64,000 nt of DNA. Source: Rhina ancylostomus (Eukaryota). This document shows, piece after piece, positions 26,270 through 63,109 of the stretch; positions within the stretch are counted from its first letter, which is position 1, and every line of letters begins with the position of its first letter. The notes below the pieces were generated by a model. It saw only the letters and a list, made by a program, of their open reading frames with translations, was not told where the DNA came from and ran no database searches. The DNA is taken from positions 26,695,627-26,759,626 of the forward strand of contig JARFYF010000036.1 of assembly GCA_030265395.1 (NCBI GenBank), written 5' to 3'. Both the position numbers and the translations under genes were made by a program.

Positions 26270-28180
26270 ACATGGTTGGCATCATGACTTGCATGCTCCA
26301 TGGACCAAATGTAAAATGGACACCATTTTCTGTGGACACCCAGAGGAGCATGTTCCACAGTCCCAGCCAATTAATGCTTTAATGAGATTAATGAAGGATA
26401 ATAGATGATGTCACTCCCTCCACATCTTCATTATGTGATAATGAAGATGGGGAGCTTATCTTCAGAACTACTGGGGAGCTATTCAACCTACAGCAACCAC
26501 ACTCCAGAATCAAGGTCACTTTGAAGCATTTGTAAATGCTCAGAGGTCATGTTACAAGTCATCATTAGATAATTCACTGAAGTGTACTATAGGACTTCAA
26601 CAAACTCAACATCTGTAGGTTCACAGTGAGACCCTGAAAAATTTGGCTGCCCTGCATCATAAAAAACAACGTTACTGCAACCTCAAGTATTGAGCTGCAG
26701 TACACAGGCAATGCTTGCACACGTGCTTACTTTAAGGCTGAGCTCCAAATTATTACTGACGTTTACTGAAGCTTTCAAGAGAATGGGTCTTGCGTTTAAC
26801 ATCTGCAGGATAATTGTTCTTTACCAACTGCCCAAGTGCACCACATTGTCCACCAACAATAAAGGTTCACAGCAAGACTCAGGAAAACATGGACCACTTC
26901 CTAAATCTTAGAAGCCATCTCTAGGCAAGGGCAGACAATGATGTTGAAATTCACCATCATCCTCAGTGCACCAATACAGCCTTTGGTCAGTTGAGGAAGA
27001 CGATATTTAAAGATCTAGATCCCAGACGTGGCATAAAACTCATGCTCTATTGGCTACCAGATATCTCTGCCCTTCTATATGCTTCTGAGAGCTGAACTAA
27101 CTGTAGCAGGCACCTTAATGCTTTGAAAAGATACCATAAATGCTTCCTCCACATTCAAGGATAAGCAAATCAATAACAGAGTCTTCTCCTAGGCTAATTT
27201 TATTAGCATTAAGGGCCTAGTTACATTCAGCTGGCTACATTGGGCAGGCCACCTCATTTGCATGCTTGACTCCAGACTCCCAAAATAGACACACCATTTC
27301 TAGCTGTGTCATGGGAATAGATTGCCAGAGGACAGATGAAAAGATTCAAGGATGTGCTCAAAGCCTTCTTGAAGAAATACAATATCCCCACTGAAGCTTG
27401 GAAATCTCTGGCCCATAAGTGCTCAAAATGGAGAAGGAGCATTTGGTAATAGTATACCAAGTCTTTTTATTCATGATAGGGGCACAGGTTTTCTGCATAT
27501 AACAAAAACTATGGATGCCTCTTAGGCTGCTGGCAATAATACTAATGTCATACTGCAGTCAGCTTATCCATGGATATAACAACTTCTATGTAAGTAATCT
27601 TCAGCTTATAACCCATCCACGTTCCTGACATCAGAGTTACCAATTCCAGCCTGATCCCAATCCTGGATCTAGTTCCACCCCTGCTCCAGCCACAAAGCTA
27701 CCCGTGTTCTGAACCCAATTTCATGAGTATGCAAATGAAAAATACGATGATGCTGGAGGAACTCAGTAGGCCAGGCAGCATCTGCAACACCTGAAGAGTC
27801 CCGACTGGAAACGTTGACCGCCGGCTTTTCTCCACGGATGCTGCCTGGCCTGCTGCATTTCTCCAGCATCATCGTGTTTTTCATCTAGGTTCCAGCATGT
27901 GCAGTCCTGTGTTTCTCGTTCATGAGTTTGCAGATCTACAGAGGGTACGTCAGCAATATAATGAGAACTTAGTGTATTGACACCAAGTCCATGTATCAGG
28001 AGCCAACAGCAGCACTGCGTAAGCAGCTGAAGGAGCAGCCCACCTCAATAACTACCCATCCACTTGCCCCAACTGTGAAAGAGTCTGCATTTCTCACATT
28101 AGTCTCATGAGACATCTCAGAACCTATCAAACCAGACTGAAAATGTTATCTTCAATATAGAGGTAATGCCAAAGAAGAAA
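26270..28180 (+). mobile_element. RTE (BovB-like) LINE, decayed and interrupted at about 27450-28010
   Basis: Remnants RTTGELFNL (about 26464), FTEAFKRMGLAFNI and LLYASES*; RTE 3' end near 28080-28180. Confidence 0.72.
27737..27918. mobile_element. Penelope-derived fold-back mini-element with a 17-bp TSD and a hammerhead-like remnant
   Basis: Arms gaaaaatacgatgatgctggag...ccaggcagcatc and gatgctgcctgg...ctccagcatcatcgtgtttttc. Flanks ttcatgagtatgcaaat (27720-27736) and ttcatgagtttgcagat (27919-27935). Core ctgaagagtcccgactggaaacgtt. Confidence 0.8.
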
Positions 28181-28825
28181 GAGGATCCTCATATTTAAAT
28201 TTCTTTTTCTCTTGATTCAGCCTCTGGCTATAAAACTCAACCAGTTGAACTTTAATTCTCCAAATCAGATTAACCCCTGCTTTACACAATCTATGTTAGA
28301 AATCTTGCTTTTTTACCAATATTCCTTTGTCCCACTCTTCACAGAAAGTGTTGTCCTAACTTCCCTCGAGCTAAAATGGCTTGAAACTTAAGCTGGCTAT
28401 CAATTTCCCCCACCCTACTCCTACAGTAAATTCTTAGAAGAAAATCCAATATAGTTCTATGCATTCCTCCTGGGCTCCTTCAGAACTTTAGGTGTGAATG
28501 GCTGAGGGTGGGGGGGGAGGGGTTGAGACTAACCAATGAATTACATATTATCCCTGGATGTGGATAATGTTTAATTCCAGGCTTATTAACATATCAATCT
28601 CCCTTTTGTCCCAGAAGCTGCTCCATTTGGCCGAAGAGATTTTTAAATTGTGAACTAACTTTAGTCTGAAACATACCCTAAACTGCAAAACTGGTCCTAT
28701 ATAAAAATACTTAGACTCCTTAAAGCATATGGTATCATCTTTTAAGAGTAATTTTCACATTATCATCAGTACAAAGTCCACATCACTATGCCAAAAGTTT
28801 GCATCAAAAAAACATAACAACTCAG

Positions 28826-29210
28826 GAGACACAAGAGATTCTGCAGATGCTGGAATCTGGCCCATCCAGCCCTTTGAGCCTGCTCTGCCATTCATTAGAA
28901 TAATGACAGTTTTTCTGCCTCAGCATCCCTTTCCAGTACTATCTCCATATCCTTTGATTCCCTTCAAATCTACAAATCTATTGACCTCCGTTTTGAATGA
29001 ACACAATGATGGAGCCTCCATAGCTTTCCGGGGTGGAGAATTCCAAAGGTTACCACCCTCTAAGTGAAGAAATATTTCCTCCTCTCAGTCCCAAATGGCC
29101 AACCTTTTTATTTTGAAACTGTGCCTGCTGGTCCTGGACTCCTTGGCAAGGGGAAACATCCTTTCTGCAACTAGCCTGCCAAGCCTTTCAAGAGTTTTGT
29201 GTTTCACTGA
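28826..29210 (-). mobile_element. Short Penelope terminal fragment (28826-28860) fused to a CR1 3' fragment
   Basis: gagacacaagagattctgcagatgctggaatctgg is followed directly by the reverse-complement CR1 tail cccatccagccctttgagcctgctctgcc...gaattccaaagg. Confidence 0.6.
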
Positions 29211-29879: not shown

Positions 29880-30545
29880 CCATTCCCAACAATAAAAGGT
29901 CCATGATGAAAAACCCTTTCCATAACAAGGAGCCAAATCTCAGCAAAGGCAGATACCCTTGATAAAATTCACCTTCTCCAGTGCACCAGTACCTATGACC
30001 ATAGAGGAAAAGAATGTACAAAGATTGAATGCTCAAATCTGGCATTAAAGTCATGGTTGGCCAGATGACAGTGATCCTTCTGCAAACTTCAGAGACGTGG
30101 GCTATCTACAGCAGGCACCTCAAAGCACTGAAGTACCACCGTCAATGTTGCCTCTGCAAAATTGTTCAAAACAATTGGCAGAATAAGCCAATTGACATCA
30201 GCATCCTTTCCCAGGCCAACATCCCCAGTACTGTGGCTCTGACTATGCTCAGAATATTCTGAATGCCTCATTGAAAAGAAATGCAATATCCTCACTAACT
30301 CAGTAATCCTTGGCCTGTGACTGATCAAAGTAGAGAAAAACCAAGCTGGTTGTAAACCAATGAAGAGACTTGAACCGATAATTTTTGCCCAGCAAAAGTG
30401 GTGGAAAAAGTGCATCACTTTCTGTGTTTATTCACCCACCCTCCCCATCAAAAACCTGTGGCAGAGTCTGCGATTCCACATTGGCATCATCAGCCAGCTT
30501 AGTACCCTGAAAACTGGAGAGAAGCAACTCATCCTCAATGCCAAG
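29880..30545 (+). mobile_element. RTE LINE 3' fragment
   Basis: ORF 30029-30262 reads SETWAIYSRHLKALKYHRQCCLCKIVQNNWQ, the RTE post-RT motif; RTE 3' end near 30470-30545. Confidence 0.78.
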
Positions 30546-31869: not shown

Positions 31870-32780
31870 GGTAATTGTTAATTAGTTTATTATTTTTACA
31901 TGTACTGAGATACAGTGAAAAACTTTGTTTTACATGCCATTCCATACAGATCATTTCAAAACATAAGTACATTGAGATAGTATAAAAGGAAAACAACAAC
32001 AGAATGCAGAATATAGTGTTACAGTTAGAAAGTGCAGTGCAGGTAGACAAATGAGGTGCAAGTGCCAATGACAAGGTAGATAGAGAGATCAAGAGTTCAT
32101 CTTTCTCATACCAGAGATCTGTTCAAGAGTCTTATAACAATGGGATAGAAGTTGTCCTTGAGCCTGGTGGTGTGCGTTTTCAAACTTTTGTATCTTCTAC
32201 CCAATGAAAGGGGGGAAGAAGAGAGAATGACTGGGGTGAAAAGGGTCTTTGATTATGTGGCTGCTTTCCCTTGGCAGCAGGAAGTGTAGACAGAGTCAAT
32301 GGGCGGGGGGGGGGGGCTGGTTTTCATGATGGACGGAGCCGTGTCCATAATTCTCTGCAATTTCTTGCTGTCTTGGGCAGAGCAGTTACCATACCAAGCT
32401 GTGATGCATCCAGATATGATGTGGTGCATGTATAAAAATTGGTTAGGGTCAACAGGAACATGCCAAATTTCCTTACCCTTCTGAGGAAGTAGAGGCAATG
32501 GTGTACTTTCTTGTTTCGATCAGGATAAGCTATTGGTGATATTTACACCTAAGAGCTTGAAGCTCTCAACTATCTCAGTTTCAGCACCATTGAAACATAC
32601 AGGGGCATGTTCTCCATCCCACTTCCTGAAGTCAATGACCAGCTCTTTTGTTTTGCTGACATCGAGGGAAAGGTTGTTGACTTGACACCATGCCATTAGG
32701 CTCTCTATCCCCTTCCTTTACTCCATCTTGTAGTTTGAGATCCAGCCCACTGTGGTGGTGTCATCTATGACATTTTAGAT
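31870..32780 (-). mobile_element. Rex1/Babar LINE, 5'-truncated
   Basis: ORF 32253-32498(-) reads IISGCITAWYGNCSAQDSKKLQRIMDTA. The 3' tail ...catgtactgagatacagtgaaaaac is shared with the 55050 and 63110 copies. Confidence 0.85.
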
Positions 32781-36779: not shown

Positions 36780-38655
36780 GGATAGTAAAGGTGTTGAATT
36801 TATAACAAGGAACTAATATGTAAAATTTATTGTCGGGAATAAGGAAGTGGCAGAGGAACTTAACAATTGCTTTGCATCTGTCTTCAGATCTGTCAAGCAG
36901 ATGCATAAAACTCATCTGATATGTTAGAGAAACAAGGTTCTAGTGAGAAATAGGAACTGACTGAACTTAAGTACCAGCCAAAATAGTACTAGAGATGTTG
37001 GAAAACTTTAAAGTTGATAAATCCCAAGGATCCAATGATTTATATCCTAGAGTTTGTAAAGAGGTGGCTTTAGATATACTCTTTTTATCATCTTCTAAAG
37101 TTCTATAGATTCTGGAACTATTCCATGGATTGCTGGGTACAAAATGTGATCCCACTACATATGGAAGAAGAGAGAAAACAAGGAACTACCAGCCAGTTAG
37201 CTTATTGTCAGTAGCAGGGAAAATAATGAATCTATAATGAGGGATATAACAGAGCACCTTGAAAAGAATAATAGGATTGAACAGAGTCAACATGGATTTG
37301 TGAAAACAAAATTGTGTTTGACTAAACCGCTGGAGTTCATTGAGGATATGATTAGTCAAATAAAGAAGGAGGAACCAAAGGTTGTGATGTATTTGGATGT
37401 TCAGAAAGCATTCAATAAAGTCCCAGACAGGTTGGTCATCAAGATTACAGCATGTGGAAGTTGGGCCAATATACTGACATGGATTGAATATTGATTAACA
37501 GACAGAAAGCAAGGAGCAGGAGTAACAGATCGTTCTCCAGTTGGGAGGCTGTGTCTATTTGGGTATAGCAGGGATGAGATCTTTTCACAATCTATATCAA
37601 CAATTTTTCTGTGGGGATAAAATTTCATATATTGTCAGCAAAGTCAGATATCAAATTCAGTGGGCTGTGTGAATGGAGGAAGATGTAAAGAGATTTTAAG
37701 GAGTATGGACAAACAGAATGAGCAGGTGAGAACATGGAAGATGGAATATAATCTGGAAAAATATTAGGTTATCTGCTTTGGTAGACATAAAAGCACATTA
37801 GTTATTAAATAATGAGAGATTGGGTTGTGTTGATGTTCAAAGGGACTGAGGTGTGCTTGAACACAAGTTTCTGATGGTCAACACCAGGTGAAGCAAGTGA
37901 TTGAGAGGGCAAACAGTACGTTTAGCCTTTATTACATGAGAACTTGATTACAGGAAGTCTATTGCAATTATACAAGGCCTTAGTGGCACAGTACCTGGAG
38001 TATTGTGTACAATTTTGAGCTCCTTACCTTAGAAATGATATACGAGACTAGTTTCAGGGATGGCATACTTAACATATGAGGAAGTTGTATCATCATCAAT
38101 ATAGAATATCAATGAAGCCAGTCCAGAAGATGTTGTTTTCGTGGACTTTCGTGAGGCTGTTGACAAGGTCCTGCATGGTTGGCTGGTCCAAAAGCTTAGA
38201 GCCCATGGGATCCAAGGGAAGCTGGCAAATTGGTTCCAAAATTGGCTTGGTAATATGAGGCAGAAAGTGGTGGAGAAGGATCATTTTTATGATTGGAAGT
38301 CTGTAACTTATTGTGTCCCACAAGGTTTGGTGCAGGGTACCTTGATATTTGTGATATATTTAAATAACTTGGATGTGAATGTAGGAGGTATGATAAATAA
38401 GACTGCAGATGGCACAAATATTTATGGTGTTGTAAATAGTGAGGAGGATGTCTTAGGCTATGGCATGATATTGATCAGCTGGAAAGTTAGGCAGAGCAAA
38501 GGCAGATGGATTTGAATTCTGACAAGGCAGTAGCGATGCACTTTGAAAGGTCAAATAAGGGTGGGACATGCCTGGTAAATGACAGGGCCCTAGAATGTTG
38601 ATGAAAAGAGGGTCCATGGGGTACAGTCCATAGATTCCAGAAAGGTCTATAGGTT
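36780..38655 (+). mobile_element. Two adjacent CR1 LINE RT fragments (about 36780-38080 and 38120-38655)
   Basis: First copy: QSQHGFVKTKLCLTKPLEF...YLDVQKAFNKVP. The second restarts with DFREAVDKVLHGWLVQKLRAHGIQG...VPQGLVQGTLIFVIYLNNLD. Confidence 0.85.
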
Positions 38656-38755: not shown

Positions 38756-38910
38756 GTCTTTGGAATGTGGGAGGAAACCGGAGCACCCGGAGGAAACCCG
38801 TGCAGACACGGGCAGAATGTTCAAACTCCTTACAGGCAGCAATGGGAATTGAACCCAGGTCTCTGGCACTGTAATGGTGTCACACTAACCGCTATGCTAC
38901 TGTGCCGCCC
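38756..38910 (-). mobile_element. tRNA-headed V-SINE (HE1-like), well preserved 5' part
   Basis: Reverse strand starts gggcggcacagtagcatagcggttag. Pol III A box TAGCATAGCGG (38899-38889), B box GGTTCAATTCC (38855-38845), then the V core gggtttcctccgggtgctccggtttcctcccacattccaaagac. Confidence 0.88.
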
Positions 38911-40110: not shown

Positions 40111-41404
40111 ATTTAAAAGAAAAAACCTCTAAAACATGCAAAAACAATTTAAAAATATTTAATTAATCTCAATGAATTTAAACGTATGTGAACTATCATA
40201 TCCTTTGAGGCCTTCCTCACCATTGAAATGGAGTATGTAGGCATCTATTTTATTCCCTTTTGAATCTATTTTGTATTTGCTTATGTGCCCTCTAGTCCCT
40301 TTTATTTCAAGCTCATCTAACATTTTCTACAGTGTCTAACCTGGCATGTTCCTCCATGATGGTGATTTGCATGAAGTTGGCGCTCTGTTGCCAGACACCA
40401 TAAAGCAGTCCAACATTAGAGCAGAGCAAATGCTTGTCAGGAAGCTTGTAGTTTAAGAGTAAGGAAGTCCTGATCTTCTTAAAGTGCCAGAAATTCAACC
40501 AGGACATTAAATAAATGGACTAGAAGGTTTGTATGGAGAGAGAAAAATTAGATTTTAAAGGAAAATAAATGGAAATTTGTGTATTGATGAGAGGGTATGA
40601 TAATCAGGGTCAGATAGTTTAATGTTAAGAGTACACAAGTAAATAAAGTCAATTCAAGGAAATAGAAATAAAAATAAAAGCATTGTATTTGAATGCATGA
40701 AATACATGAAACAAAATAGATGAAGTGATGGAACAAATGGAGATTAATGGGTTTGATCAAATCGACATAAGAGACATGGTTACATGTTGATCAAGGTCGG
40801 GAATTAAATATTCCAGAGTCCTTGAAGTTTCAAAGAGACAAACAAATAAATATAGGGTGGGTGTTATAGAGTTTGTGGTGGGGAAGAGAGGAAGTTATAT
40901 AAAGGCAGTACTGAAGAATATTTTTCCAGAGCTAAAACCAGGGTGTGGAATTAGTAATTGTAAGTGATAACAAACAACATAATGTGGCTATAATTTCCGA
41001 GTTTCCTAATTTCAGCATTACAGTTGAAGCAAGAAATAAATTAAAAAGTAAGATGGTCTTGAAGCAAAAATGACTTAATAATTATATTAAGTCATTCTAT
41101 TTAGATGGAGGAAGCTTTACATAGATTGAAGAAATACTATTGCGGGAGCCCTGGCTGAACTATATGCAGCCTCCAGAAGACTGAAGGCTGGCTAATGTTG
41201 TATCTTTATTTATGATGGCTCCAAAGAAAAACCTGGTAACAGCCACATCTGTGGGAAGAGAAACAACCTTAAAGCTTCAGGTCAAAGACCTTTGTCAGAA
41301 CTGGGAAGACTTGTTATTTGCAGCAGATCTGTCAAGTGTCAAAATAAAAGGAGATGAGTGAAAACGGAGAGGAACAAAGAAGTGATGGAACTGTGAGATT
41401 CACA

Positions 41405-49075: not shown

Positions 49076-51706
49076 CTTATAAATGGCAAGAGGTGTTCTT
49101 CTGAAGTTGTAATTAAGGCATGTTACTGGGACATGCCACATTATTTGTGGATGCTGTACAACACTGGGTCTTAATGTGGGAATTCTTGACAGGGAGAGTA
49201 TGAAGTGTGACTAATCTAATGGTTAGGAAGAATGAGGAAAGACCAAGGAAGGTATTGGTTTGAAAATATAAAGACAGATTACCTTGAGGTAAATAGTTTT
49301 GTGATGAAGATCTTTGCCAGAATGTACAACTTGGATCTCAGAATGGTGTTAAATGCTAGTACAAGTTTAGGTAAAGTTACTCTTGGGAAATAAAACTATT
49401 ATTATTGAGATATATTTTCTCTGGAAGTGGATATATTTGCATCAGCTTTTCATGTGTAAATCATGCAAAAATATTGACTATTTTAAGTCATTTTATCCAC
49501 ATGTCGGAAGCCCTCCACCCATACACCCCCACTGGAAAATTGGCCAGGCATTTCATGTTGCAAACCACCTTGCACAGGTTTCATTTCCCTGTCATGTTTC
49601 CTGCACACGACAGCATCATCAGCATGCATGGCTTGCTTTAGTACAGAAATTGGTTCAAAATAATCATAATAAAGGAGCAAAACACAGTGAAAATAGTGAA
49701 TGCCCCATTATGTAAAAGGACATTGCTGGGATATTAATATTATATTTTATTCATCGCCCACTATTTTCTCCATGGTAGTTATTGCAGCTCTTGGCTCATC
49801 CATGGCTTAACTGCAGCATCTGCCCGCTGTCCCAGTTGGTCTGCTCCATAGCCTAAGGTGCCTGTGTGCCATTAAAACCCTCTCCCAATGATTCCCCCTC
49901 CATCCCTCTACTTTCCCTCCTCCATTTCTCTCCAAAATGCTTTAGTGTTTCTTAAAGGAAACAAATCATGTTACCAATTTCTTAAAACAAGTATAATTAG
50001 TTCAGCAACAATGACTAAAGTCTAATTTACAGGCAAACATGTTCATAGAGAGTGATTTAAATAAAAATCTAGCCAAATTTTGCGCATACTAGGGCACTAC
50101 AAATTTATTGGTATGGTATTTGTAAAAAGCTAAGTGTAAAAAAAAAACTGAGTTGAGGGGATGCACAGCCCAATCTCTTGACATCCTGTCAATTTCCTGT
50201 CTAGGTTAAATATTTTTGGCATCACTTTGTTGCAGCATTATTTAGAGATAACCCAGATTTATGCCTAAATCCAGTTATGAAAAATTGCCCAAGTGAAAAA
50301 AATTACATTTGTTCTTTGCATAGATCAGATCAAGGTCCCTTATTGTGGACAATTATGAAATAAAGGCCAAGATCACTCAAACAGGCATTTATATTAAGGT
50401 GGGTGGAGCTGTGAAGGCAGTGCAGTACCACAAGCAGATCGGTCTGGAGGAAAGCATCTGTGTCTTCAGAGGTGCAATCATTCAGGGTCGTACTACTACT
50501 GTAAAGAAAAACTTAACATTTGTTATTCCCCCCTAAAATTGGAGTAAACCCCTACAGAAATTAGTCACCTTCCACTATCTTTACGAAGTGGCCATTTTGT
50601 GGTCCCTGCAAGTAAGCATGAACAGGCAATTTATACATAACCATCAGTCAAACTTTCCTCGCTCTGTGTCCTTACCTCTGTGCATGACCAGTTAGTAATC
50701 AACAGCAAGAATCCTAATTGATTTCCCCAAAGAAATCTACAATATTTGCACTACAACCATTACAGAGATAAGCCAAGACTATAACTGAAAAGCCTCCAAT
50801 ATTTTTTCAATGTTTGAAGAGACGAGAAACTTTTGAATTGAAGTCGCAATTGTAATATTTAGAACTAGCATTTTAATGATAACCCTTTGTCAATTATTCA
50901 TATAATGGCATTAATCTATTTGTTTTCATAAAATAGTTTAAAATAGCCAACAAGATTTTTGCAATACCAACTCAAACACCTTGGGCTCCATGCTTTTCTT
51001 GAAAACTCTGAACTCCACACTAGAATAACTAACCCACCAGGCAGAGTGTTGTTTAGATTCTACAGTCTTGAAATTGAGTTTAAGGACATCAAATATTAAA
51101 TGCTTGTTATGACAATCTGTAAGTATTCTCACTCATATCTAATGTCTCTATTAAAGCATAAAGTACGGAACACTTTGAAGGAAAATGTAATATATTCATT
51201 TGCTTCTATTATATGATGCAATTGCAAGATTGATGTCTTTGAAGTCTCTAACAATGTTGTGATTATATATATATTTTAATTATGACCTCAAACAGTATGC
51301 AACATATGCTCAAATCCCACACATATACAGAATGAGTAACTTATTAGAAATTTGTTGGATAATAACTTGCCAAATCTACTTTTCCTCAATCCATTTTAGT
51401 TAGAATATATATTAATCAAGCATGCTTGCTATAACCCAGCAAAGTGTATCCATTGTAATTGAATATCCATGATAAACTTCCTCATGGTAATGGCCCTAAC
51501 CATTCTGGGCTGTCAGTTGTATAGGAGGGGCAAATTGTCCCATGCTGTACATCTGGCTGATATAATAAGCATTTCACAAAAGCAGAACCATTGAAAGGGC
51601 ATATTATAATACCAATAACTCAAACTCCATCAATACACCATCTTCAACAATTAGAAGCTCTCATGTGCAAAAAGAGCTGTCACATAGAAAGCTTCTCTNN
51701 NNNNNN

Positions 51707-51920
51707 AGCTGGGTGGAGCCCACTCAGGTAATTCAAACAAGCCAATGATTCAGGGTCAAGAGCAAAGGTGGGTTACAAGCCAATCCTCAATGGGTGGGGT
51801 GGAGCCAGACCCTTGATTGACAGTGGTGTAGCTTCTGACCCAATGGGCAATGCTATCATCTGACCATGGGGGTCAGTATTGTTGTCACTGTCATCTGACC
51901 CCATGGCCTTTCACACTACA
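51707..51920 (-). mobile_element. Possible LTR U3 fragment rich in CCAAT and GC boxes
   Basis: Ends in ...cacactaCA (TGTAGTG on the minus strand). CCAAT at 51742, 51780 and 51840; gggtggagcc at 51711 and 51797; three ctgacc(c)-atgg-type repeats. It abuts a gap and I found no TSD. Confidence 0.4.
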
Positions 51921-53199
51921 ATATCTGCACATTCTTCCTGCTTCAATTTTTGCTCATGTTCCTATTATAATAAAAACTCTGTGTGTTACTTTGTCATAAT
52001 GAGACTACCTGCAGCTAATGGCATTTTAGCTTTGCATCTCCAAGTTCTTTGGTCTATGCTGTAAGGGAACTGCTATGCTGCACCTTCTATGCTTTCAAAT
52101 ATCCATAGTTTCTGGCAAAATATTGTACAAAATAATTGTAGAATTCATGGGTTAAAAGTGGGAACTGAATTACATCTGCATTTCCTGGTTCAATTATCTT
52201 GCTTTCCCATCTCCATACTCACTGCCATAAGAGACTGATCAAACACACGAAATTCATTCATAAAAGTCATGCAAGTATGATGCCACAGATTACTGTTGAA
52301 ACCAAGATATAGCTCAAAATGTAGGAGACCTACCTACCAGTTTTCCACATGGAATGAAGGTTGTATTTGACAGCATCAAGTTACCATCACCTAAACACGT
52401 CATGACAGATGTGTTGTTCTATGATAATTACCATGGTTGTATCTTCTTGAAGCAGTGTAGTCTTTGTTGTTTGAACTCCTATGCTATGCTAGTAATGTAA
52501 ATGGAGCAGATCAGATCCTTATCTAAGAGGTAGTTACTGCAAACTATTTCATGTACCAGTTCAAACATTTAATAGGCCTGACACTAGATAAACTGTGCTA
52601 TGAAGTCATTTAATATGAAGTACTTTAATAAGTTATTTCCTTTTTTTTAAGATTATGAAGATTTCTTTCAGAATTTTGCAAAGAAGATTGTATTAACAAA
52701 AAACAGTAACACATTGAGAATAAAGCAGATATCAAAAGAATCAAAACATTAAATACGATCCTCTTGCCACAACCAGACCAAGTTTTGGTACAATGAGTAA
52801 ATTCTTGCTAATTTTTGGTTTTATTGAAAAGAACTGCCTTTAGAGCCAGAATAATTTTGTCAACAGAATATTTATTCTTTGGGGTAGCTATGCATCAAAT
52901 ATCTTTTGCTAACAATGAATGATTGCAGTATTCTATATTTTTGCAAGTCAACTAACTAATGATGGTAAAGTCATCCAATTCAAATTCTGATTAACAAAAT
53001 GTTAGAATGTCAATTTCACTGCATTTCTGTCTTATTATCATAATGATAACAAGACACTGTACTCCCATTATCACTAGCACTTAGTAACAGAAGAGGTACT
53101 GTATGTAGAGCTACCATCGAACCACCATTTGAAAGTAGACATTCAAAAAGTAAAGTTACTTCATGGTTTTAAGGAATCTTCCTGTGCACAAATTGTCTG

Positions 53200-53860
53200 C
53201 TGGAGTAGGCCATATGGTCTCTAGAGCCTGCTTTGCTATTCTGATCTGATCTCTGCCTCAAATCTGCAATCCTGCCTCTGGCCCATCTAGTCCTTGATAC
53301 CCCTTTAGATAAAATGTTTTTCTAACTGTGCCTTGACTATATTCAATGATCTGCAGCTCTCTCGGGTAGAGAATTTCAAAGATTTGACCTTCAGTGTGAA
53401 AAAAAACTCTTCCTCAACTCCATCTTAAATAGTTGATCTTAGGTCTTCATTCCCCCAAGAGGGGAAACTTTCTTTTGACATCTGGCCTATTGACCTTTAC
53501 TATTCAAAAGAGCACAAACCCAGCTGGCTCCAAAGATAATCCATTCATCCCAAGAATCAACTTAGAAAACCTTTTCTGAGCTGCCTCCTATCCTTCCTTA
53601 AATAAGGAGACCAAAATTGGATGCAGTATTCCAGTTGTGGCCTCGCCTATACAGTTTTAGCCAAATCTCCCAATTTTTATATTCCTTCCTTTTCAATGTA
53701 TAGACCAACAATCCATTCACCTTCTTTATTACTTGCTATACCTGTATACTAATTTGCTGTGTTTCATATATGACCCTGATCTGTCTGAACCCCCACACTA
53801 TATGTTGTCTCTCCATTTTACAATATACTGTTTTTCTGTTTGTCTTAACGAAGTAGATAA
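53200..53860 (-). mobile_element. CR1 LINE 3' fragment, decayed
   Basis: ggagtaggccat...gagcctgct...gggtagagaatttcaaagatt...ccttaaataaggagaccaaaa resembles the 25170 copy. Confidence 0.68.
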
Positions 53861-54173
53861 CTGAACAGAGTTAATATTTCAGGTTGATGGCCTTTCTTCA
53901 GAACTTTCATCCACATATTGTCTAAATGGTGAGGGATGGTGGAGGGAGTGATGATCTTATTGAAAGGTGGTGCTGGTTTGAGAACTCAAGTGACCTACTC
54001 CTGCTAATTCGTATGTCCGTCAGCTTCTTTACCCATTTTTAACCTGATACTATGAGATCTCATGAGACCTGGAATCAATGTTGAGGAATCCTATCTGTAT
54101 AACATTGCCACCACATCTGATGCATCTGTCATACTGAGGGGACAGGATGCACCAGGGATTGTGATGGAGAAGC

Positions 54174-54338
54174 AAACAATCTGCTGAAGGAACTCAGTGG
54201 GTTGAGTGGTATCTGTGGGGAGAAAGGAATTGTCAATGTTTCAGGTCAAAACCCTGCATCAGGACTTTCGCCTGCACAGATACTCCTCATCCCACTGAGT
54301 TCCTCCAGATTCCAGTATTTGCAGTCTCTGGTGTCTTC
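54174..54338. mobile_element. Penelope-derived fold-back element with a 16-bp TSD, inserted into an older LINE-like repeat (about 54050-54890)
   Basis: Flanks attgtgatggagaagc (54158-54173) and attttgatggaaaagc (54339-54354). The reverse strand of 54232-54266 reads agtc-CTGATGC-agggttttgacct-GAAAC-ATT-gac. Confidence 0.8.
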
Positions 54339-55049
54339 ATTTTGATGGAAAAGCCTGGCACATTGCCTTCAAGTATGATTTTGTGATTATAACTATGTCA
54401 CACTGTTGTTTGACTTCATCTGTGCAACAGCTTTCCTAATGCAGATATCAGCGTGAGGAGGTCCTTGTAAGGTTGGCTGGCCTGGGAGTGTCTTCATCAT
54501 GTCCAGGTTCTGTGCCTAGTCAACACAAGGTAGTCCCTCTAGTTTTATTGTTTCTCTGTTTGAACATTGCAGTAATGGTACAACTGAATGGCTAGTTAGG
54601 CCACATCAGGTGGCATATCAGAATTAGTCACACTGGTGGGTCTGGAGTCACATTTAGTCTGGACCAGTAAGGGATGGCAGATTTCCACCCTTGAATCAGA
54701 TGGGTTTTACAACAATCCCGTCGTTTTTGTGCTCACTGTTACCACGACTAGTTTTTTTTTCCAAATCTGGGATTACTTACTGCATTTAAATTCCCACCAG
54801 TGTTGTGGTGGGTTTGAACTTGAGTCTTTAGGTTGTTAATCCAGGCCTCTAGATTACTAGTCTGATAATTTAACTACCTTGTACCCGCCGTACCCCAGTA
54901 TTATTACATCGCTGTTTTCGGGGCTCACTGTATGTTAGGTGGCTGCTTTTCTTTCCGCATTACATGCTGGTAAATTACAGCACGTTCATGCTTTGCTGCA
55001 TAGAGGAGTCCAACACCAGAGTACAGTCAGCAAAATCCCAGTGGTATGT

Positions 55050-55690
55050 TATTGGTTTATTGTCACATGTACCAAGATATAGTGAAAAGCTTTCGTTACA
55101 TGCCATCCAGGCAGATCATGCATTACACTGAGGTAGTAAAAAGAAAACAGAATGCGGAATATAACATTGTAGCTACAGAGAAAGCGCAGTTCAGGAAAAC
55201 AAATACAGTGCAAGGACCACAATGAGGTAGATTGCGAGATCAAGAATTCATTTTTAGCAAATGAGAGGTCCATTTAAGGTGTGCTAACAGTGGGATAGAA
55301 GGTGTCCTTGTGCCTGGTGGCACATAATTTCAAGCCTTTGTATCTTCTGCCTGATGGGAGATGAGAGAGACGGGTTCAATTTCTGCTGCTGTCTGTAAGG
55401 AGTTTATACATTCTCCCCGTGACTGTGTAGGTTTCCTCTAGGTGCTCTGGTTTCCATCCACATTCCAAAGACACACGGGTTAGGAGGTTAACATGGCTGT
55501 AACTGGGCAGCACGGGCTCGTTGGGCTGGAAAAGCCTGTTACAGTGCAGTATAAATAAAAGTTTAAAAAGTTTGAAGAGAGAATTATCAGGCTGAGAAGA
55601 GTCCTTGATTATGTTGGCTGCTTTCCCAAGGCAGTGGGGTGTGTAAATGGAGTCAATGAATGGGAGGCTGGTTTACGAGATGGACTGAGT
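55050..55690 (-). mobile_element. Rex1/Babar 3' fragment interrupted by a plus-strand V-SINE (about 55371-55570)
   Basis: Collinear with 31870-32340 on both sides of the SINE. The SINE reads cgggttcaatt...ctgtaaggagtttatacattctccccgtg...aaataaaa. Confidence 0.8.
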
Positions 55691-57719
55691 ATAGAGCAGT
55701 CAGCAAGTGTGAGTTCATAAGGGAATCCTTGTGACACTGATGCTGAGAAATCCCAGCAGTTCAGCATGGAACAATTGATTTTCCATTTGTTTCGTTCCAG
55801 CAAAATGTTGTGTTCCTTTGCTGCAATTTCTAAAATATATGGCTGACCAAATGGAACCAAGTTACAAAATGCACAGCTATAAACATTTCACTGAACTGCC
55901 ATGTGATGTTTGTTTATTGTGCATGTACAGTGGAGGAAATGGCATAAGCAATTAATAGCATACAAGCAGACAGTGCAGATAAGAATTTTGAAAGTATGCA
56001 GCCAGGTCATTTTATAAAATGACATGAAAATAAGTGCAGTATTTGGAAAGAATCTACTTGGTACAGCTGGTGGCGGAAGGGAAATATAACAGAAAGGTTG
56101 GAGTATAAGATTTGTAAAGTACTTATCTGGTACTATGTGTGTTCTCCAGGAATGAAAGATTAATCACCCAGAGAAGTCTGCAACGATTTTGGGAGAAAAG
56201 ACGGAAATTGAATTTTCAATTTGCATAGTGATCCTGGGAGTATGACTCCATGTCACATTGCTTCTGTCAGTCTCTTCCTCCATGTTCAGCAGATGAACAA
56301 TCCAGCTGTAAACAACACCCAAATCCTTTTTGTCCCAGAGGGGAAATGCCCAGCTACAGAAGTTTACATTCTTGGAGAGGCTAAACAATTCACAGAGATT
56401 TTTACACAGAAGTCACCATGCAGAAATTGATCATTCAAACACAGTGAATTTTCTATGCCTTAAATGGGAACAAACCATCACGTAATCAGAACCTGACCTT
56501 CAGAGTGAGGACAAAAACAGACCTTACCCTCTGTTACATTCAGTGATTTAAACCTGTTTTTTTTGTCAGGGCTGATGAATGGCTAAGAAGAGTGCACTTC
56601 AGGTGACCAGCTATAATGTAACTTTCCTCTTACCAAGACTTGCAGGATTAAAAAAAGAGTGTTCTCTTGCTTCTTTCAGTCCACCAATGAAGTAGAGATT
56701 CTTGCCCAATGGCTTTGAGTTGAAGGAGGGCAGACCACAAAAAGATCCACATTGGTCACTGCTGGGGTTGTCCATGCAGGTTCTAATGTTCTGGATCCTG
56801 AACTTGAGTAGGGCCTATGTGTGAATTCACCTACCATGGTGTCGTGACAGAGTGGGGTCATGGTCCAAAGCAAGAGGACCAAAGACAATTGGAAATGGGG
56901 TATTGCTGCTTGAACATGCACACAACTGCTTCTCTGTCCAAACAGATATACACACCTTGATTCTCTTCCCTCAGTCTCTTTCCCTCACCAATATTTCCAG
57001 ATCACTGCCTGACACCTTTTCCCTCCCTCTCTCAGCCCCTTTCACAACTTTGTCTTCCTCTTTTTTGTACCCCTTACCACTCAGTGCCCTCTCTCCTTTC
57101 TTCTTTTTCTTCTCTAAATTTGCCTCTCTTTTTCTCCTGCTCTTTGTCTCCCTCACACATCCTCCTACCCATGTACTCAGTCCCATACCTCACTCCCTGC
57201 CCCCTTGGCTTGCTCTTCAGTCTTGTGGTCTGCAGATTGTTTTCCATCTGGTTCCGGTGAGCAAATGATCTGAGGCTTATGACCCATGATGGACGCTCCT
57301 CCTGTGGGCTTCCTCTGAATATTTTGATAAATCCGTAGTGGCCTGCCTGAATGTAGTCTCCCCATATATTGCCGAGGAACTGAAGGGTCCTAAGTGCATA
57401 TCTTTGGCTGTATCCTCAGTCCAAGAGAGTCCTTAAACAAACATATCCCTCAGTGACCAAAGAGATCAATGGTAGTGCTCACCATCAGCTCCAATATACC
57501 AGTGCAGCCACCTAAAGAAATCCATGTTCGAAGATCAAGACCTCAAACCTGCTTCTCGGCAACAGTGATGTTGCCCTCCTTCACATATTAGAGGCATGGA
57601 CTACCTACGTTAGGCTCTTCAAAGCACTAGAGTGGTACCGACAACACTATTGCTTCAAAATCCTCCAAATCCAACGGTAGAATTAGTGAACCTACATCCT
57701 TAGCATCAAGGTTCTCATT

Positions 57720-58050
57720 ATACTCAACCAGCTCCATTAATGGTCACATGCCCAATCCCAGAGTCTAAATTCCATCACGATAAGAGATTACCAGAAGGCA
57801 GAGACAATTATTCAATGATGTTATCAGAGCCCTTTTGAAAAAATGTAACATCCTCATCTGTTCTTAGAAATTCCTGGCCTCTGCCTGCTGGAAATGGGAG
57901 AAGAGCATCTAGGATGACACCAAGAACCTCAAAGCTCTTCCAAAGGCACAATGTGTAGACCAAATGAAAATGGTGGAAGGAACACAGAACCTCAAAAGCA
58001 ACCCACCCTTCTGCCTCACCTGTGCAGAGTCTGTGGATCCCTCATAGGAC
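57720..58050 (+). mobile_element. RTE LINE 3' fragment
   Basis: ttcaatgatgttatcagagcccttttgaaaaaatgtaacatcctc parallels 27340-27400; ends in cagagtctgtggatccctcatagg. Confidence 0.6.
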
Positions 58051-58224
58051 TCCTTTTTCCCCCACAATTATATATTATTCATAAAATGTGTAATATATAA
58101 TACAGTATATATTACCACTCAGAGCACAAGACAGAGCTTTCCACATTCAAACAAGATTCACATTATATCAGCAAAATATCAATTTCTACAAATTTCTTTT
58201 GCAAATCTCTTGCAAATTTCTGCA

Positions 58225-58327
58225 GATGGGGAGCATTCTGACTGGTTGCGTCACTGCCTGGTATGGAGGCTCCAATGCACAGGATCAAAAGAGGCTGCAG
58301 AGGGTTGTAGACTCAGCCAGCTCCATC
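58225..58327 (+). mobile_element. Rex1/Babar fragment running into a gap
   Basis: Peptide SILTGCVTAWYGGSNAQDQKRLQRVVDSASSI. Confidence 0.82.
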
Positions 58328-58504
58328 NNNNNNNNNNNNNNNNNNNNNNNNNNNNNNNNNNNNNNNNNNNNNNNNNNNNNNNNNNNNNNNNNNNNNNNNN
58401 NNNNNNNNNNNNNNNNNNNNNNNNNNNCTAGAGAAGGGACACGTTCGGCACAACTTTGTGGGCCAAAGGGCCTGAATTGTGCTGTAGTTTTTCTATGTTT
58501 CTAT

Positions 58505-59285
58505 AAGGTGGGGGAGGGGAGGATCACGAACTGGTGGGTGCTGGGTGAGAAGGGGGAGGTAGATGGGTGGGGGACAGGGGGAACAGGAATGATGTGAGAA
58601 GCTGGGAGGTAATAGGCGGAAGAGGCAAAGGGCTGAAGAAAAAGGAATCTGATAGGAGAGGACAGTGGACCAGGGAATGAAGGGGAGGAGGTGACGAACC
58701 AGAGGGAGGTGATGGACAGGTCATGAGGGTGAGGGAGGAAAATGAGAAGGGCGGAAGGGGCCACAGGAATGAGGGAAAAAGGGAGGAGTGGGGGGGGGAA
58801 GGAAAACAGATGGGAGTGCTTACAGAAGTTAGAGAAACTGATGTTGATGCCGTCAGGTTGGAGACTACCAAGACGGAATATGAGGTGCCGCTCCTCGAAC
58901 CTGTTTCTGTCCTCAACGTGGCAGTAGAGAAGACCATGAATAGACATGTCAGTGTGGGAATGGGATGTGAAATTAAAATGGCTGGTCACTGGGAGATTCT
59001 GGCTGTTGCGGCGGATGGAGCGAAGTGCTCGATAATGTGCTCCCTCCAATCTGCGTCGGGTCTCACCGATGTAGAGGAGGCTGAACAGGGAGCACTGGAT
59101 GCGACAAATGACCCCGATGAATTCATTTCCTCACCCTCTTCCTTTCCAGTCCTGAGGAAGGGTCTCGAGCCGAAACATCAATTGTTCATTTCTCTCCGTA
59201 GATGCCACCAGACCTGCTGAGATCCCTCAGCACTTTGTGTTTGTTGCTCCAGATCTCCAGCATCTGCAGAATCTTGTGTGTCTCC
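58505..59285 (-). mobile_element. 5'-truncated Penelope-like retroelement: GIY-YIG endonuclease C-terminus, pyrimidine-rich 3' region, and an inverted pseudo-LTR carrying a hammerhead-like motif
   Basis: The reverse strand from about 59115 reads GVICRIQCSLFSLLYIGETRRRL...LRSIRRNSQNLPVTSHFNFTSHSHTDMSIHGLLYC...EERHLIFRLGSLQPDGINISF. The plus strand at 59147-59185 reads cagtc-CTGAGGA-agggtctcgagcc-GAAAC-ATC-aattg, followed by the same arm as the mini-elements, ending gtgtctcc. Confidence 0.88.
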
Positions 59286-59859
59286 TGCTAACTTTAGCAG
59301 CTGTGTGGGTTTTTTTCTGTTCTGATCTGCTGCATGTTAACTGATGGGATTAATTATTTAGTCCAAGGTCTTTAACAAGAACCATTGATTGTAGGACAAT
59401 CTATCAGGACCTTAGATGTTAATCAAATGCAGACGAATTAAAATAAAAGCACAACGCTAAATATGACAGTTGAACTGTCAAATGGCTGGAGGAATAGTTC
59501 TCTGTCCAACTGGGCTGTGGTTCTTCTGCCAAAAGATCTTGAAACATTATGGATAATTGCATTGGGCCAGATAGTTCTCAGCTCTGGCTACAGGGAACAC
59601 TGCCTGTCTTGTCCTTGCTCTTCAACTTGTCTACAATTTCCATGCCTGAGCATTCAAGTGTGGACACCAGAGGTGAGACAGGGATCAAATCCCAACACAA
59701 CTGACCTCCCTCTCTGCCACTGTAGTCACTGTTGAGTCTGGGGTTTTGGTGGTGGGTGGGTGAATTGGCAGAATGAGGTAATGTGGCAAGTGCTTTTTGC
59801 ACCCACAAGCCTAGCTTTATGCCATCTATGGCAGGCTCAATGGTGAAACCTCGTTATTC

Positions 59860-59985
59860 CTTTTTTGCACTATTTATTTATTTTTGTAACTTATGGTAAT
59901 TTCTATGTCTTGCACTGTACTGCTGCCGCAAAATAACAAATTTCATGACATATGTCAGTGATAATAAACCTGATTCTAACTCTGA
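59860..59985 (+). mobile_element. Rex1-type 3' tail fragment
   Basis: gcactgtactgctgccgcaaaataacaaatttcatgacatatgtcagtgataataaacctgattct. Confidence 0.6.
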
Positions 59986-60275
59986 ATTTTCTTTAACACA
60001 ATGGTACATAGGGTTTTTACATAGGTTCCAGTCCCTCAGTGTGCAATGATGGCAAGGCTTTAACCCGTGGCCTTCCCCATACAGTCTCCGCAATGACTGT
60101 ATCAATGTATAGTAAGTCTTTCATTGTGTAGTCCTGGGCAGTGGAACGTATCAGTCTGCAATATTTGGTCATGGACAGCTCCTTGCCCTGGTCAATAAGC
60201 ACGTTTTGTTTTAGGTTTGTACAGTGTAACACTTTTCAGCCACATGAGAACAAACAGAAATTGAATGGAAACAAG

Positions 60276-60393
60276 ATGAAAAGCACTATAATGCTGGAGG
60301 AACTCAGCCGGCCAGGCAGTCTCCGTGAAGAATCCGTGCAGTCCTTTGTTTCTTTCATCTAGATTCCAACATCTGCAGTTCTTTGTTTCTCTA
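60276..60393. mobile_element. Short Penelope-derived insertion with a perfect 13-bp TSD, inside an RTE 3' end
   Basis: gaatggaaacaag occurs at 60263-60275 and 60394-60406. The arms resemble the 27737 copy. The hammerhead region is absent. Confidence 0.8.
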
Positions 60394-63109
60394 GAATGGA
60401 AACAAGTTGTCCTCAACCCTAAGGATGTGCCTAAAGAGACAAGATCACAAGCAGGTGTGCATGCACAGCTTGGAATAATATAGTTTTTAGATATCAAAAC
60501 CGAGTGATAGATCCATTTTTTGCAACACTGAGGGCAAATTATATGTATTTTTAAGTTGCAAGAAGTGTTTTAAGTATTGTTGGTTTAAAAAGAATTACAG
60601 AGATGTGAAATTGGTCTTTGGCAGTGGTGCTGAAGTGTTGACAGCAAACGGATGGCCTGTTTTATACCCTATTGATTGAAGTCGTTGAGAAAAAAACTCA
60701 AGTGTAAAATGAGCTCCTGATTTACTCCTGCTCTTGTGTGTTTCACTAACAATCAACTCTTATGGCCACATTCTCTCCAAGCTATGGCTGAGGGTGCAGT
60801 CAGAACATGTACATCATGTTGATATCTTTTACTTTAAATGTGCTAGATATAGATTCTAGTTTCCATTTAGTCAACTGAAATTACAAAGAAAACTTATAAG
60901 ATCCCAAACAGGAACATAAAATGCTAAGAGGATTCAGGCATCAGGCAACAAGCAGAAAATAAAGAAGTTGTTAATGTTTCAGCACCTTATCAGAAACTGC
61001 AAGCCTTGCTGATGATTTCTGGCATTTTCTGATTTTGTTGGAAATTATGAGAAATTGTCACCTATAGTTTCTAAGAAGTACCTGGGAACGAAGGAGCTCA
61101 CCTCTCAGGACAGAACTGGAACATTTCCTTGGGGTACTCTGGAAATTTTTACCAATCAACAAAATCTCATTCTTTAGCTTGCTGTTGGTGAAGGCACTTT
61201 GGACAAGGAATCTACTCTTTATAAAGGTAAATGTAATAATGTTTACAAACAGCAGGCATGGATCATGTGAATGTAATATATTGAGACTAATTATCTCATG
61301 ATTAAACCTCCAGGAATAGGTCAAAACAAAGTTGGCATCTCTGAAAGCCTTTCATTGGGATTATACCCTTAGAATAGAATATATTAAGTACTACATGTCA
61401 GCATCACTGAAGTTGCTTTTCCTTTTTTCATACCAAGATTTCTCAATGCCTCAATCTTTACCAGATCCAAAGTAAATTCATAAAAATTCTTAAAGTTTTC
61501 TTTACCAAATCTGGCAAGTTTACTTTGAGATGGCCTCCTTTGTATGAAACTCATATGTCAAAGCTGACAGCATGACCAAGGCATTTCAGATAACATACAA
61601 GCCGTTTTAGTGAGACATCAGGAAATTTGGAAGTCACATCCAGTGAATTTACTTCCTTCTCCTTCCTTTTCAGGAAGTGGATGGCCTCTCGAAGTCTAAA
61701 AAAGCAGGTGTAAACAGGCAGAAGTATTTTAACAAAAGCCAAGTTTGAAAAAATTGACAGTATTATATGCAGTTTACATACAAATGACGCAAAGAGACTA
61801 ATTCTCAGTATTTTATTCTTAATCTGTCCTGTTTAGAAAGTTGGATGCAATTCCGCAGGATATTGCATTCATTTTTTATATATCAGAAAGTGTATACAAG
61901 GGTCTAACCACATGCTGAAAGAGCTTAAAGTAGCCCTTGTATTGTGAAACAGGAAGTCATAAACCTGTCTACTTGCCCTTAGTTTTGTTGAACCACTTAC
62001 TTCCAAAGATTCTACTGTTGAATGTTGATTAGTCTTTATCCTTAGGCTATTGATTGACAACAGGAAAAACAGGTCCCTCTCTGCAGAAAAGTTAAGGGAT
62101 GTGGTTTACTGCTTTCTCGGTACTTGTAAGGAAAACATCCATTAAAATGACAAGCAGAATGGTACAATTGAATATAGCAGGCCACAAGACTGCTATTCTG
62201 TTCTCCATCAACTTTTCACACTCTTTATTTAAAGGAACAGCTCAAAATAAACCATTGTCAAATTCATACAAGTTAAATCAATTTATGCACTAAATCTGTT
62301 ATGAATTACAGGGAACATTAGTGGAGTAATTTTGTGGCCGTTTTTTTGTTCCTAACTCCTACCACTTCACTCTGAAGAGTTTTTTTATATAGTAATCTTT
62401 CATTCTCATCAGACAAAGGGTTACTGGCACAAAGGAATGGGGTGATTTTAGAGGTCAGATACCACTTTTAAGCTTCAAGTGAAGGCCAACTATTTTGTAA
62501 TGAATTTTGCAGGTTACGCACCTGAAACTGCTGGATCCTTAAGGTTAGCTCCTTACAGCTACTTTTAATTTCCTTGGGGCTGGTTTGGCTCATTCGAAAA
62601 CATACAGTGAGAAAAGTCAGAAAGGATGCTTTCCAACAAGATTTAAAGAGATGCTCATTTGCAGTTATATCTGCATTTGACCCAAAAAATGGAAATACTC
62701 AGGAGATCAGGCCCAATCTACGGAGAGAGGAAGAGAATTTACATTTCAGTTCAATGTCCTTTCAACACAACTCTCACATTTTTACTGAATATGGATTAAT
62801 TTCAATTCAGTTCAAGTTAATTCTCTGATTTGGTATTCATGTATATCTGTTCCTTCTAATGCTATGTTATTTTCAGAGAGAAATTTCTGATCCATCAACT
62901 GTGGATTTGTGCAAAATACTGACAGAGATTCAACTTAGCAGTTCCCTTGCCCACTTCTCTATCTTTTAAGAGTGCCTTTCTTATCGTTGCTTTCTCAGAG
63001 GGACTACATTTGCAAAGCTAGTATTCTAAAGCCTGAGAATGCTTTTGTTTCCCTTCTTCCTGCTGAGGATGAGATGGTTCCTTTCATGGGTTCTGCCAAA
63101 ACAGAAAGA

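Follow-up and report, generated by a model that had tools for sequence, protein, structure and literature searches.

Inverted truncated copies, tails on one side only and minimal hammerhead ribozymes within the pseudo-long terminal repeat (pLTR) have already been published for Penelope-like elements (PLEs). The DNA analyzed here, called the window, is a stretch of 64,000 nucleotides from the cartilaginous fish Rhina ancylostomus (GenBank assembly GCA_030265395.1, contig JARFYF010000036.1, positions 26,695,627 to 26,759,626 of the forward strand; coordinates below count from its first letter). It contains short, hairpin-forming insertions with hammerhead-type motifs, which had been noticed by eye (the original prediction) as one family of fold-back mini-retroelements. 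Their origin lies in PLEs, and the insertions are very probably truncation products of such elements.

The endonuclease-bearing (EN+) Neptune and Nematis elements (Craig et al. 2021, PMC8557442) are like the present insertions in their 5' truncation, in the adjoining inverted 5'-truncated copy and in a tail of 30-40 bp at one end. They encode a GIY-YIG endonuclease C-terminal to the reverse transcriptase (RT), and share a CX2-5CxxC linker with the homologues treated below. Unlike these elements, the present insertions are almost all pLTR sequence of 116-273 bp, with no full open reading frame (ORF) and no direct tandem in the window. Neptune is described as common across vertebrates (bioRxiv 10.64898/2026.07.22.740005). 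Penelope is also among the repeats listed for the whale shark.

The minimal hammerheads of metazoan PLEs (Cervera and De la Pena 2014, PMC4209133) correspond to the present motif in being of type I, with CUGAnGA, an extra base before stem II, a G10.1-C11.1 pair, a palindromic 15.2-16.2 without loop 3 and a U-rich 5' flank; unlike theirs, the present stem II is short (4 bp plus a tetraloop). Hammerhead pairs on opposite strands, 100-700 bp apart, are known in PLEs, and in a wasp genome a PLE truncated at its 5' end carries a second, opposite-strand motif there (PMC4209133), a layout also seen in the copy at 59132. The published minimal motifs were silent as monomers and weak as dimers, and the table and alignment rows examined from that survey include no chondrichthyan (PMC4209133).

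Poseidon of Anolis carolinensis (PAc; Frangieh et al. 2024, PMC11167929) agrees with the origin proposed below in that the tail length is set by the spacing of two RT start sites, both target strands are cut and extended, the hammerhead is dispensable for insertion and uncleaved RNA is used. Its protein is predicted to be a dimer, unprocessed RNA is the substrate in vitro and the Anolis motif needs its own protein (PMC11167929). PAc differs in belonging to the Penelope/Poseidon clade and in a ribozyme which overlaps the ORF start; its priming is reported to be non-homologous to the target (PMC11167929), whereas here the RNA at the inner site has partial matches to three of five targets.

Penelope of Adineta vaga (Arkhipova et al. 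2013, PMC3846280) likewise has inverted pLTRs and a 31-bp tail, its own target-site duplications (TSDs) being 8-10 bp, and unrelated DNA between solo pLTRs inside one TSD gives a precedent for the structure at 43585-45126. Unlike the present family, it is of low copy number and mostly ORF-containing; the present TSDs are longer (11-16 bp). Animal non-LTR retrozymes (bioRxiv 10.64898/2026.07.22.740005) are related to PLE pLTRs, short and hammerhead-bearing, and occur in one chondrichthyan sampled. They form head-to-tail tandems with at least two same-sense ribozymes, in contrast to the present units; no head-to-tail unit was found among the profile hits in the window, the copies being dispersed or head-to-head, and a retrozyme was rejected as a candidate.

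Arms of the insertions were collected with a profile made from 14 arm segments of the window, which gave 33 matches within the window at an expectation value (E) up to 10. Nineteen of these had an E of 0.0012 or better and comprised the 14 seeds and five new arms (611-731, 21221-21330, 41246-41307, 41395-41492, 62690-62761), while the best match among 10 reversed or shuffled control sequences had an E of 0.22. Borders of the arms were assigned by eye and the sample consists of seven units. All six insertions listed originally were present (27735-27917, 43597-43869, 44904-45113, 47546-47755, 54165/74-54338, 60276-60391), and so were the decayed copies at 608, 21190 and 41405 (E 7.6e-7, 3.8e-12 and 9.9e-9). 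A further decayed copy at 60920 was weak (E 0.61) and one near 9950 was missed by the profile; a hammerhead descriptor site was found at 10001, near the latter. New to the list were 59132-59285 with an endonuclease fragment, 28825-28862 (tail only), 41246-41307, 62690-62761 and 53856-53906. The features are as follows:

27720-27932, head-to-head unit of subfamily C; left arm 27735-27787 (minus strand), right arm 27788-27917 (plus strand) with a broken motif and a 32-nt tail; 14-bp TSD (27720-33/27919-32, 1 mismatch)
43585-45126, compound structure of subfamily A; unit 43597-43869, about 930 bp of unrelated DNA, N gap 44804-44903 and unit 44904-45113; single 13-bp TSD
43661-43698 (minus strand) and 43745-43782 (plus strand), pair of hammerhead-type motifs on opposite strands; U4 changed to A in both
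44904-45113, unit with its left end truncated by the N gap; motif 44956-44993 (minus strand)
47535-47769, head-to-head unit of subfamily B; left arm to 47647 (minus strand) with motif 47610-47646, right arm 47648-47755 (plus strand) with a 32-nt tail; 11-bp TSD (47535-45/47759-69, 0 mismatches)
54158-54354, head-to-head unit of subfamily B; left-arm motif 54230-54267, right arm 54267-54338 with an internal deletion; 16-bp TSD (54158-73/54339-54, 2 mismatches)
58502-58824 (minus strand), pyrimidine-rich region 3' of the endonuclease fragment, putative 3' untranslated region (UTR); broken at about 58502 by another repeat and the N gap 58328-58427
58825-59124 (minus strand), degenerate, 5'-truncated C-terminal coding fragment of a GIY-YIG endonuclease, from tblastn to ray proteins
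59132-59285 (plus strand), terminal-repeat arm with tail, inverted and head-to-head with the endonuclease fragment; hammerhead-type motif 59147-59184
60263-60406, very short unit of subfamily C (insertion 60276-60391) without motif; right part about the 33-nt tail plus a partial tail repeat; 13-bp TSD (60263-75/60394-406, 0 mismatches)
28825-28862 (minus strand), solo tail fragment; no TSD found
21187-21330, older decayed head-to-head unit; profile match 21221-21330, left part by eye
611-965, older decayed unit; minus-strand arm 611-731 with a partial tail, possible plus-strand arm near 912-965 (E 0.66)
41246-41307 and 41395-41492 (minus strand), two older decayed arm fragments (E of the first 0.0012)
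62690-62761 (minus strand), older decayed arm fragment (E 1.2e-5)
53856-53906 (minus strand), motif remnant of the older type with a GUU-type triplet position and a U-A closing pair; matched by the descriptor, weak in the profile (E 0.13)

These copies do not form a single family, as had been thought. Pairwise identity divided the well-preserved arms into three subfamilies (about 74-86% within and mostly 53-76% between them), namely A (43597, 44904, 59132), B (47546, 54165) and C (27735, 60276), and most decayed copies belong to an older type. Wherever the overlap sufficed, both arms of a unit fell into one subfamily; the right part of 60276 was too short to be placed. The six listed insertions measure 116-273 bp, and the seventh copy, at 59132, is joined to the endonuclease fragment. 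In 7/7 well-preserved head-to-head units the plus strand bears the tailed arm, which is thereby antisense to the host gene; the tailed fragments at 611, 28825 and 41395 lie on the minus strand, and the numbers are small.

The unit plan consists of a tail-less reverse copy followed by a tailed sense copy, both 5'-truncated, within a short TSD. Head-to-head parts were found in seven units; the inverted arms described originally are thus present in general, the case of 60276 being marginal with an inverted overlap of only about 8 nt. For the TSDs, 35 left-right pairings were tested, and the four assigned to single units plus one further pair (43585-97/45114-26) were exceptional. The former, which had been called clear before, scored 10-13, and a score of at least 10 was reached by 0 of 3000 random position pairs. 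TSD length was variable across the five events (11, 13, 13, 14 and 16 bp). Measured from the TSD border, the overhang of the one-sided tail was 32, 32, 32, 33 and 40 nt in these five TSD-bounded events, the last value becoming 31 nt if a 9-nt overlap is assigned to the arm. No TSD was found at 59132, 28825, 41246 and 41395.

The fifth duplication is perfect over 13 bp (43585-43597/45114-45126, score 13) and spans both units, 43601 and 44904, with about 930 bp of other DNA and the N gap between them; individual TSDs were not found for either unit. The left arms of 43597 and 44904 share an identical run of 53 nt, after which 11 of 36 positions differ, and the tail measured over the outer arms of the compound is 32 nt. 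An assembly chimera at the repeat is the more likely explanation of this structure. Alternatively, by analogy with the precedent of rotifer Penelope, unrelated host DNA may have been captured between terminal repeats.

The internal junctions differ in 7/7 units and none is common to two of them. Relative to C3, the 5' ends of 13 arms are spread from -20 to +70. In 44904, 47546, 54165, 60276 and 59132 it is the tail-less side, and not the tailed arm, that goes furthest in the 5' direction, and both arms have private sequence in 4/6 short units, or 5/7 units including the endonuclease copy, the exceptions being 27735 and 43597. Where both arms have private sequence, neither arm can have arisen by folding back and copying the other; judged from the aligned arms, this would favour two independent priming events over fold-back copying.

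At the inner, tail-less end, the last 10 nt of the target were compared with the element sequence past that end, giving 2, 2, 5, 8 and 6 matches in the five events. The total of 23/50 exceeds the null mean of 12.5 and was equalled or exceeded in 126 of 100000 random draws (p ~0.001); this test was devised post hoc on five events and used a sister copy as the reference for 54165. At the tailed end, 1, 0, 3, 0 and 2 extra bases were found.

The origin of the family is revealed by the endonuclease fragment, which had escaped the original prediction although a Penelope-like origin had been proposed there. In tblastn, the ray proteins P0009-P0011 matched 59124-58825 over 100 amino acids (aa) with 59-63% identity, at E values of about 1e-32 to 1e-33. 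The nearest named relatives are the C-terminal domains of proteins from Hypanus sabinus and Mobula hypostoma, in keeping with the chondrichthyan setting suggested before. These ray homologues carry a Y[IV]D[DNK] RT motif, a CX3-4CxxC linker and weak Pfam matches to GIY-YIG. A homologue profile searched against 1.84 billion representatives found 1174 proteins at E up to 1e-30. Among the 150 homologues listed, 32 have at least 700 aa; CX2-5CxxC is present in the last 260 aa in 32/32 of them and [YF][IV]DD in 30/32. The order in the homologues is RT, linker and GIY-YIG, and in five scanned with Pfam, RVT_1 was matched in 4/5 and GIY-YIG in 5/5. The CX2-5CxxC linker occurs in all six longer homologues P0009-P0014, and the window fragment begins downstream of the linker position. 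Of the CCHH motif, the fragment retains the histidine pair and only one of the aligned cysteines. A search of PDB sequences with the homologue profile gave 0 matches at E up to 1. One homologue, P0010, is entered for Hypanus sabinus as 'divergent protein kinase domain 1C isoform X2' and consists of a Penelope-like RT, linker and endonuclease; this is probably a gene-model artefact.

The endonuclease fragment lies head-to-head with arm 59132-59285, 7 nt from the 5' end of that arm. It is the only endonuclease fragment found in the window, and it adjoins an arm in the orientation expected. The endonuclease is tied to the family by this adjacency, in the orientation common to every other unit. 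Its reading frame continues through the putative UTR, and a second copy of the pyrimidine-rich region 58502-58824 was not found in the window. The family is assigned to PLEs, and a miniature inverted-repeat transposable element (MITE) is rejected, because the linked GIY-YIG fragment has homologues with an RT and a Neptune-type linker. The linkers of the homologues suggest that the parent elements were Neptune-type PLEs, the CX2-5CxxC linker being a mark of both Neptune and Nematis elements (PMC8557442).

The majority consensus of nine arms, one of which (27735R) was misaligned, equals the 38-nt motif drawn up by eye exactly. It has the core CUGAnGA, GAAA and UH, an extra base between 9 and 10.1, the G10.1-C11.1 pair and a palindromic 15.2-16.2 (ACGU) in a loopless helix III, and thus fits the published definition of a minimal type I hammerhead (PMC4209133). 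The best fold of the consensus holds stems I and II at -12.4 kcal/mol, the bare hammerhead fold having -10.2 kcal/mol. A relaxed hammerhead descriptor, widened post hoc to accept C at position 9, found six sites in the window; 200 shuffles gave 0 sites in 194 cases and 1 in six. The plain core pattern matched 16 times against a chance mean of 7.1, most matches lying outside the family. Stem positions were paired in 61-63% of cells over 13 segments, compared to 17-41% in slid registers.

That the insertions contain the motif intact is true for the consensus and not for any individual copy. Among 16 motif segments, the core (CUGAnGA, GAAA, UH) is kept in five and the ACGU palindrome in two, and 0/16 combine core, palindrome and both stems. 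The best-kept motif of the six listed units is 44956-44993 (minus strand, left arm of 44904), in which the core is intact, the stems are mostly paired and the palindrome has decayed. Both arms of 43597 share the change of U4 to A. In both motifs of subfamily B, 47610-47646 and 54230-54267 (minus strand), core position 9 is C, followed by A, which lies outside the published CUGANGAH consensus (PMC4209133); a core variant of the whole subfamily or a shifted bulge is possible.

Departures from the consensus were counted in eight arms, leaving out 27735R. They affect 22/60 CpG positions, all of them transitions (22/22), including the CpG of the palindrome, compared to 4/68 core and 21/133 other positions. 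Within subfamily A, 4/49 core positions and 25/296 positions of the downstream arm have diverged. Since the core diverges as much as the downstream arm, there is no sign of selection after insertion, and decay, mostly at CpG, looks neutral. Six genomic motif segments folded no better than shuffles (z +0.63 to -1.34). From their sequences, the copies appear to be inactive ribozyme relics. A strand-swapped dimer model reached -19.3 kcal/mol, compared to -34.9 kcal/mol for the best co-fold, in a model that lacks non-canonical core pairs.

A YAG stands over the start of stem I in six of seven arms which reach upstream, mostly past a pyrimidine tract and resembling a 3' splice site: 59125-59156 and 43723-43754 on the plus strand, 43689-43720, 719-750, 41294-41325 and 9980-10011 on the minus strand. 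The Penelope element of D. virilis has an intron that stops where helix I begins on its 5' side (PMC4209133). The tract could mark an intron in the pLTR or merely be the U-rich flank usual for such motifs.

Together, these data lead us to regard the units, with good confidence, as old dead-on-arrival truncation products of autonomous Neptune-type PLEs, with dual priming as the leading form of their origin. That they were dead on arrival is most likely, because all internal junctions differ. The dual-priming step itself we infer with somewhat better than even confidence, perhaps more. The parent RNA would have carried a minimal type I hammerhead within its terminal repeat. The endonuclease of the element would nick both target strands 11-16 nt apart, as deduced from the TSDs. 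One 3' end would prime reverse transcription at an outer start site and yield the tailed arm; the other would prime about 32 nt further in and yield the tail-less inverted arm, a step to which pairing with RNA bases apparently contributed in some events. Each cDNA would stop early, at variable points (most at 50-150 nt and therefore with pLTR sequence only, one at about 620 nt or more, within the endonuclease), and the two would then be joined head-to-head. The template would be uncleaved RNA, because 0/13 arms start at the ribozyme cleavage site and 9/13 span it. After insertion, the units would have decayed neutrally and lost ribozyme function. The hammerhead travels as a passenger within the parent's terminal repeat, since junctions vary, none of the copies is intact, decay looks neutral and 5/13 arms are missing either the entire motif or the 5' half of its core, four of these being situated entirely 3' of the cleavage site. 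The likelihoods worded here for this origin and for its alternatives overlap in content and are not meant to sum to one.

The alternative that fares best retains the PLE origin and explains the inversion by self-priming, i.e. fold-back on one template, following the antisense self-priming idea in PMC3846280. It has been published for head-to-head PLE structures with junction palindromes (PMC3846280), and it would suit the nearly symmetric 43597 with its shared U4-to-A change as well as 27735, in which the tailed arm could contain the whole other arm. Nevertheless it is improbable, as in 5/7 units each side has sequence absent from the other, the tail offset is constant and fixed to the TSD border, and a purified PLE protein extends both strands (PMC11167929). 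The term fold-back describes the DNA shape correctly and the mechanism probably not.

Less likely again is that the units are non-autonomous, PLE-derived mini-elements, transcribed and re-mobilised as short fold-back units by means of the ribozyme. Such very short units are dense (seven well-preserved ones in 63 kb), three left arms end within 2 nt of one another where stem I begins, both retrozymes and non-autonomous derivatives of PLEs are known (PMC8557442; bioRxiv 10.64898/2026.07.22.740005) and pLTRs alone can be mobilised in trans (PMC3846280). However, no two units have a junction in common. Clean TSDs surround both 60276, which lacks the motif, and 27735, in which it is broken, head-to-tail units are absent from the profile hits, and folding predictions for a unit transcript have a long hairpin bury or displace the motif. 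The original view of ribozyme-bearing mini-retroelements in their own right is given up for the variable junctions, the lack of an intact copy and the neutral decay.

It is very unlikely that some copies serve the host gene as working ribozymes in an intron or as regulatory hairpins. The host gene lies on the minus strand, which would put the left-arm motifs (43661, 44956, 47610 and 54230) in sense orientation in the pre-mRNA, and the units are predicted to fold as long hairpins (-79 to -173 kcal/mol in five of six); however, none of the 16 motif segments is intact, their decay looks neutral, six fold no better than shuffled sequences and published minimal motifs are inactive as monomers (PMC4209133). 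A cut-and-paste MITE unrelated to Penelope, with the endonuclease adjoining by chance, can be dismissed with hardly a reservation: short, hairpin-forming and TSD-flanked as the units are, their TSDs vary in length where a fixed length is expected, the repeats are not terminal on both sides but one arm overhangs by about 32 nt, junctions are variable, the consensus is a textbook minimal hammerhead and the endonuclease adjoins an arm in the expected orientation. A tRNA-derived short interspersed nuclear element (SINE) was also rejected; ARAGORN, a weak test where heads have decayed, found 0 genes in the window, and the arms have no common 5' head.

Several results weigh against the truncation origin. 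The link to the endonuclease is a single copy, which on its left runs into another repeat and a gap and for which no TSD was detected, and only subfamily A is tied to it. A Pfam scan of the fragment matched no family, a read-through protein joining the UTR and the ribozyme arm scored in 0/21 candidates, and the window holds no full-length element, no RT belonging to the family and no direct pLTR tandem. Rfam gave no match at the gathering threshold in the window and no hammerhead at E up to 10 in 43500-61100, where its 15 sub-threshold matches were of other kinds, with weak microRNA-type matches drawn. Covariation in stems I and II, named in the original prediction as a check, was not significant in either register of stem II, 37 and 78 of 500 shuffles being as high, and the alignment combines segments with stem II of two lengths; stem I is closed by C-G in seven segments and by U-A in four, probably one event between subfamilies. 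Finally, the left arms at 44993, 47647 and 54266 end within 2 nt (-4 to -6, the 5' edge of stem I). This near-common stop suggests an RT pause or a preferred joining point; it could also hint at a recurring, re-amplified structure.

A published description of the present family was not found in the literature on PLE hammerheads and chondrichthyan transposable elements; Dfam and Repbase were outside this comparison and may well catalogue it. The minimal hammerheads of PLEs are hereby extended to a cartilaginous fish lineage not included in the rows examined of the 2014 survey. For annotation, caution is advised, as such short palindromes are retrotransposon debris and neither MITEs nor microRNA hairpins. 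The larger value is mechanistic and concerns the origin of inverted pLTRs and one-sided tails in PLEs. Short, abundant, TSD-bounded insertions expose both junctions together, so that dual priming and microhomology become countable in one genome; a number of about 10^5 copies is an extrapolation, provided that seven per 63 kb is typical.

Tentatively, and at clearly less than even odds, cartilaginous fish may hold a very large fossil record of Neptune dual target priming, in which the start sites on the nicked strands lie about 32 nt apart, the inner one being selected through its pairing with target bases, the outer one being free of homology and often accompanied by extra bases. If true, dual priming would account for the inverted pLTR and the one-sided tail of PLEs, homology-independent priming as seen in vitro would need to be qualified, and 43585-45126 would represent a stretch of host DNA, about 1 kb long, transported between pairs of pLTRs.

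Regarding the host, three exons on the minus strand (14586-14431, 4661-4550 and 4442-4333) were identified as NOL4/NOL4L-like from short motifs, and the choice of the NOL4L paralogue is an assumption. By-eye reading of 286 short frames, taken with a cut-off of 32 aa (1018 frames of at least 34 aa were counted), and 63 long ones found no host exons; these were found with short motifs. No exon upstream of the three was found in the window. The units lie 5' of these exons in the direction of transcription and would be intronic, as proposed originally, if the first exon is beyond the window.

Other repeats were also found. RVT_1 fragments were matched with Pfam at 16215-16571 (E 1.8e-4), 37201-37491 (E 5.6e-5) and 38105-38512 (E 1.3e-8), which we take to be CR1-like; related repeats at 16851/39601 and 16957/39728 lie near them. 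Decayed C-terminal fragments of non-LTR retrotransposons are of two types, presumably Rex1/L2-like (12964-13268, 32256-32717, 58189-58327) and RTE-like (18580-18952, 26911-27092, 30029-30259), and Pfam gave no match for two of these fragments. A separate repeat family (3347-3424, 13659-13736, 41507-41535, 41833-41910) adjoins gaps in 3/4 cases and breaks the arm at 41395. A dispersed repeat of about 110 nt, presumably SINE-like, occurs at 38756-38864, 48847-48957 and 55364-55488, the copies being 81-87% alike. Two 65-nt copies, 42230-42294 and 42896-42960, are 100% identical and 666 nt apart, possibly by assembly duplication or a recent local duplication.

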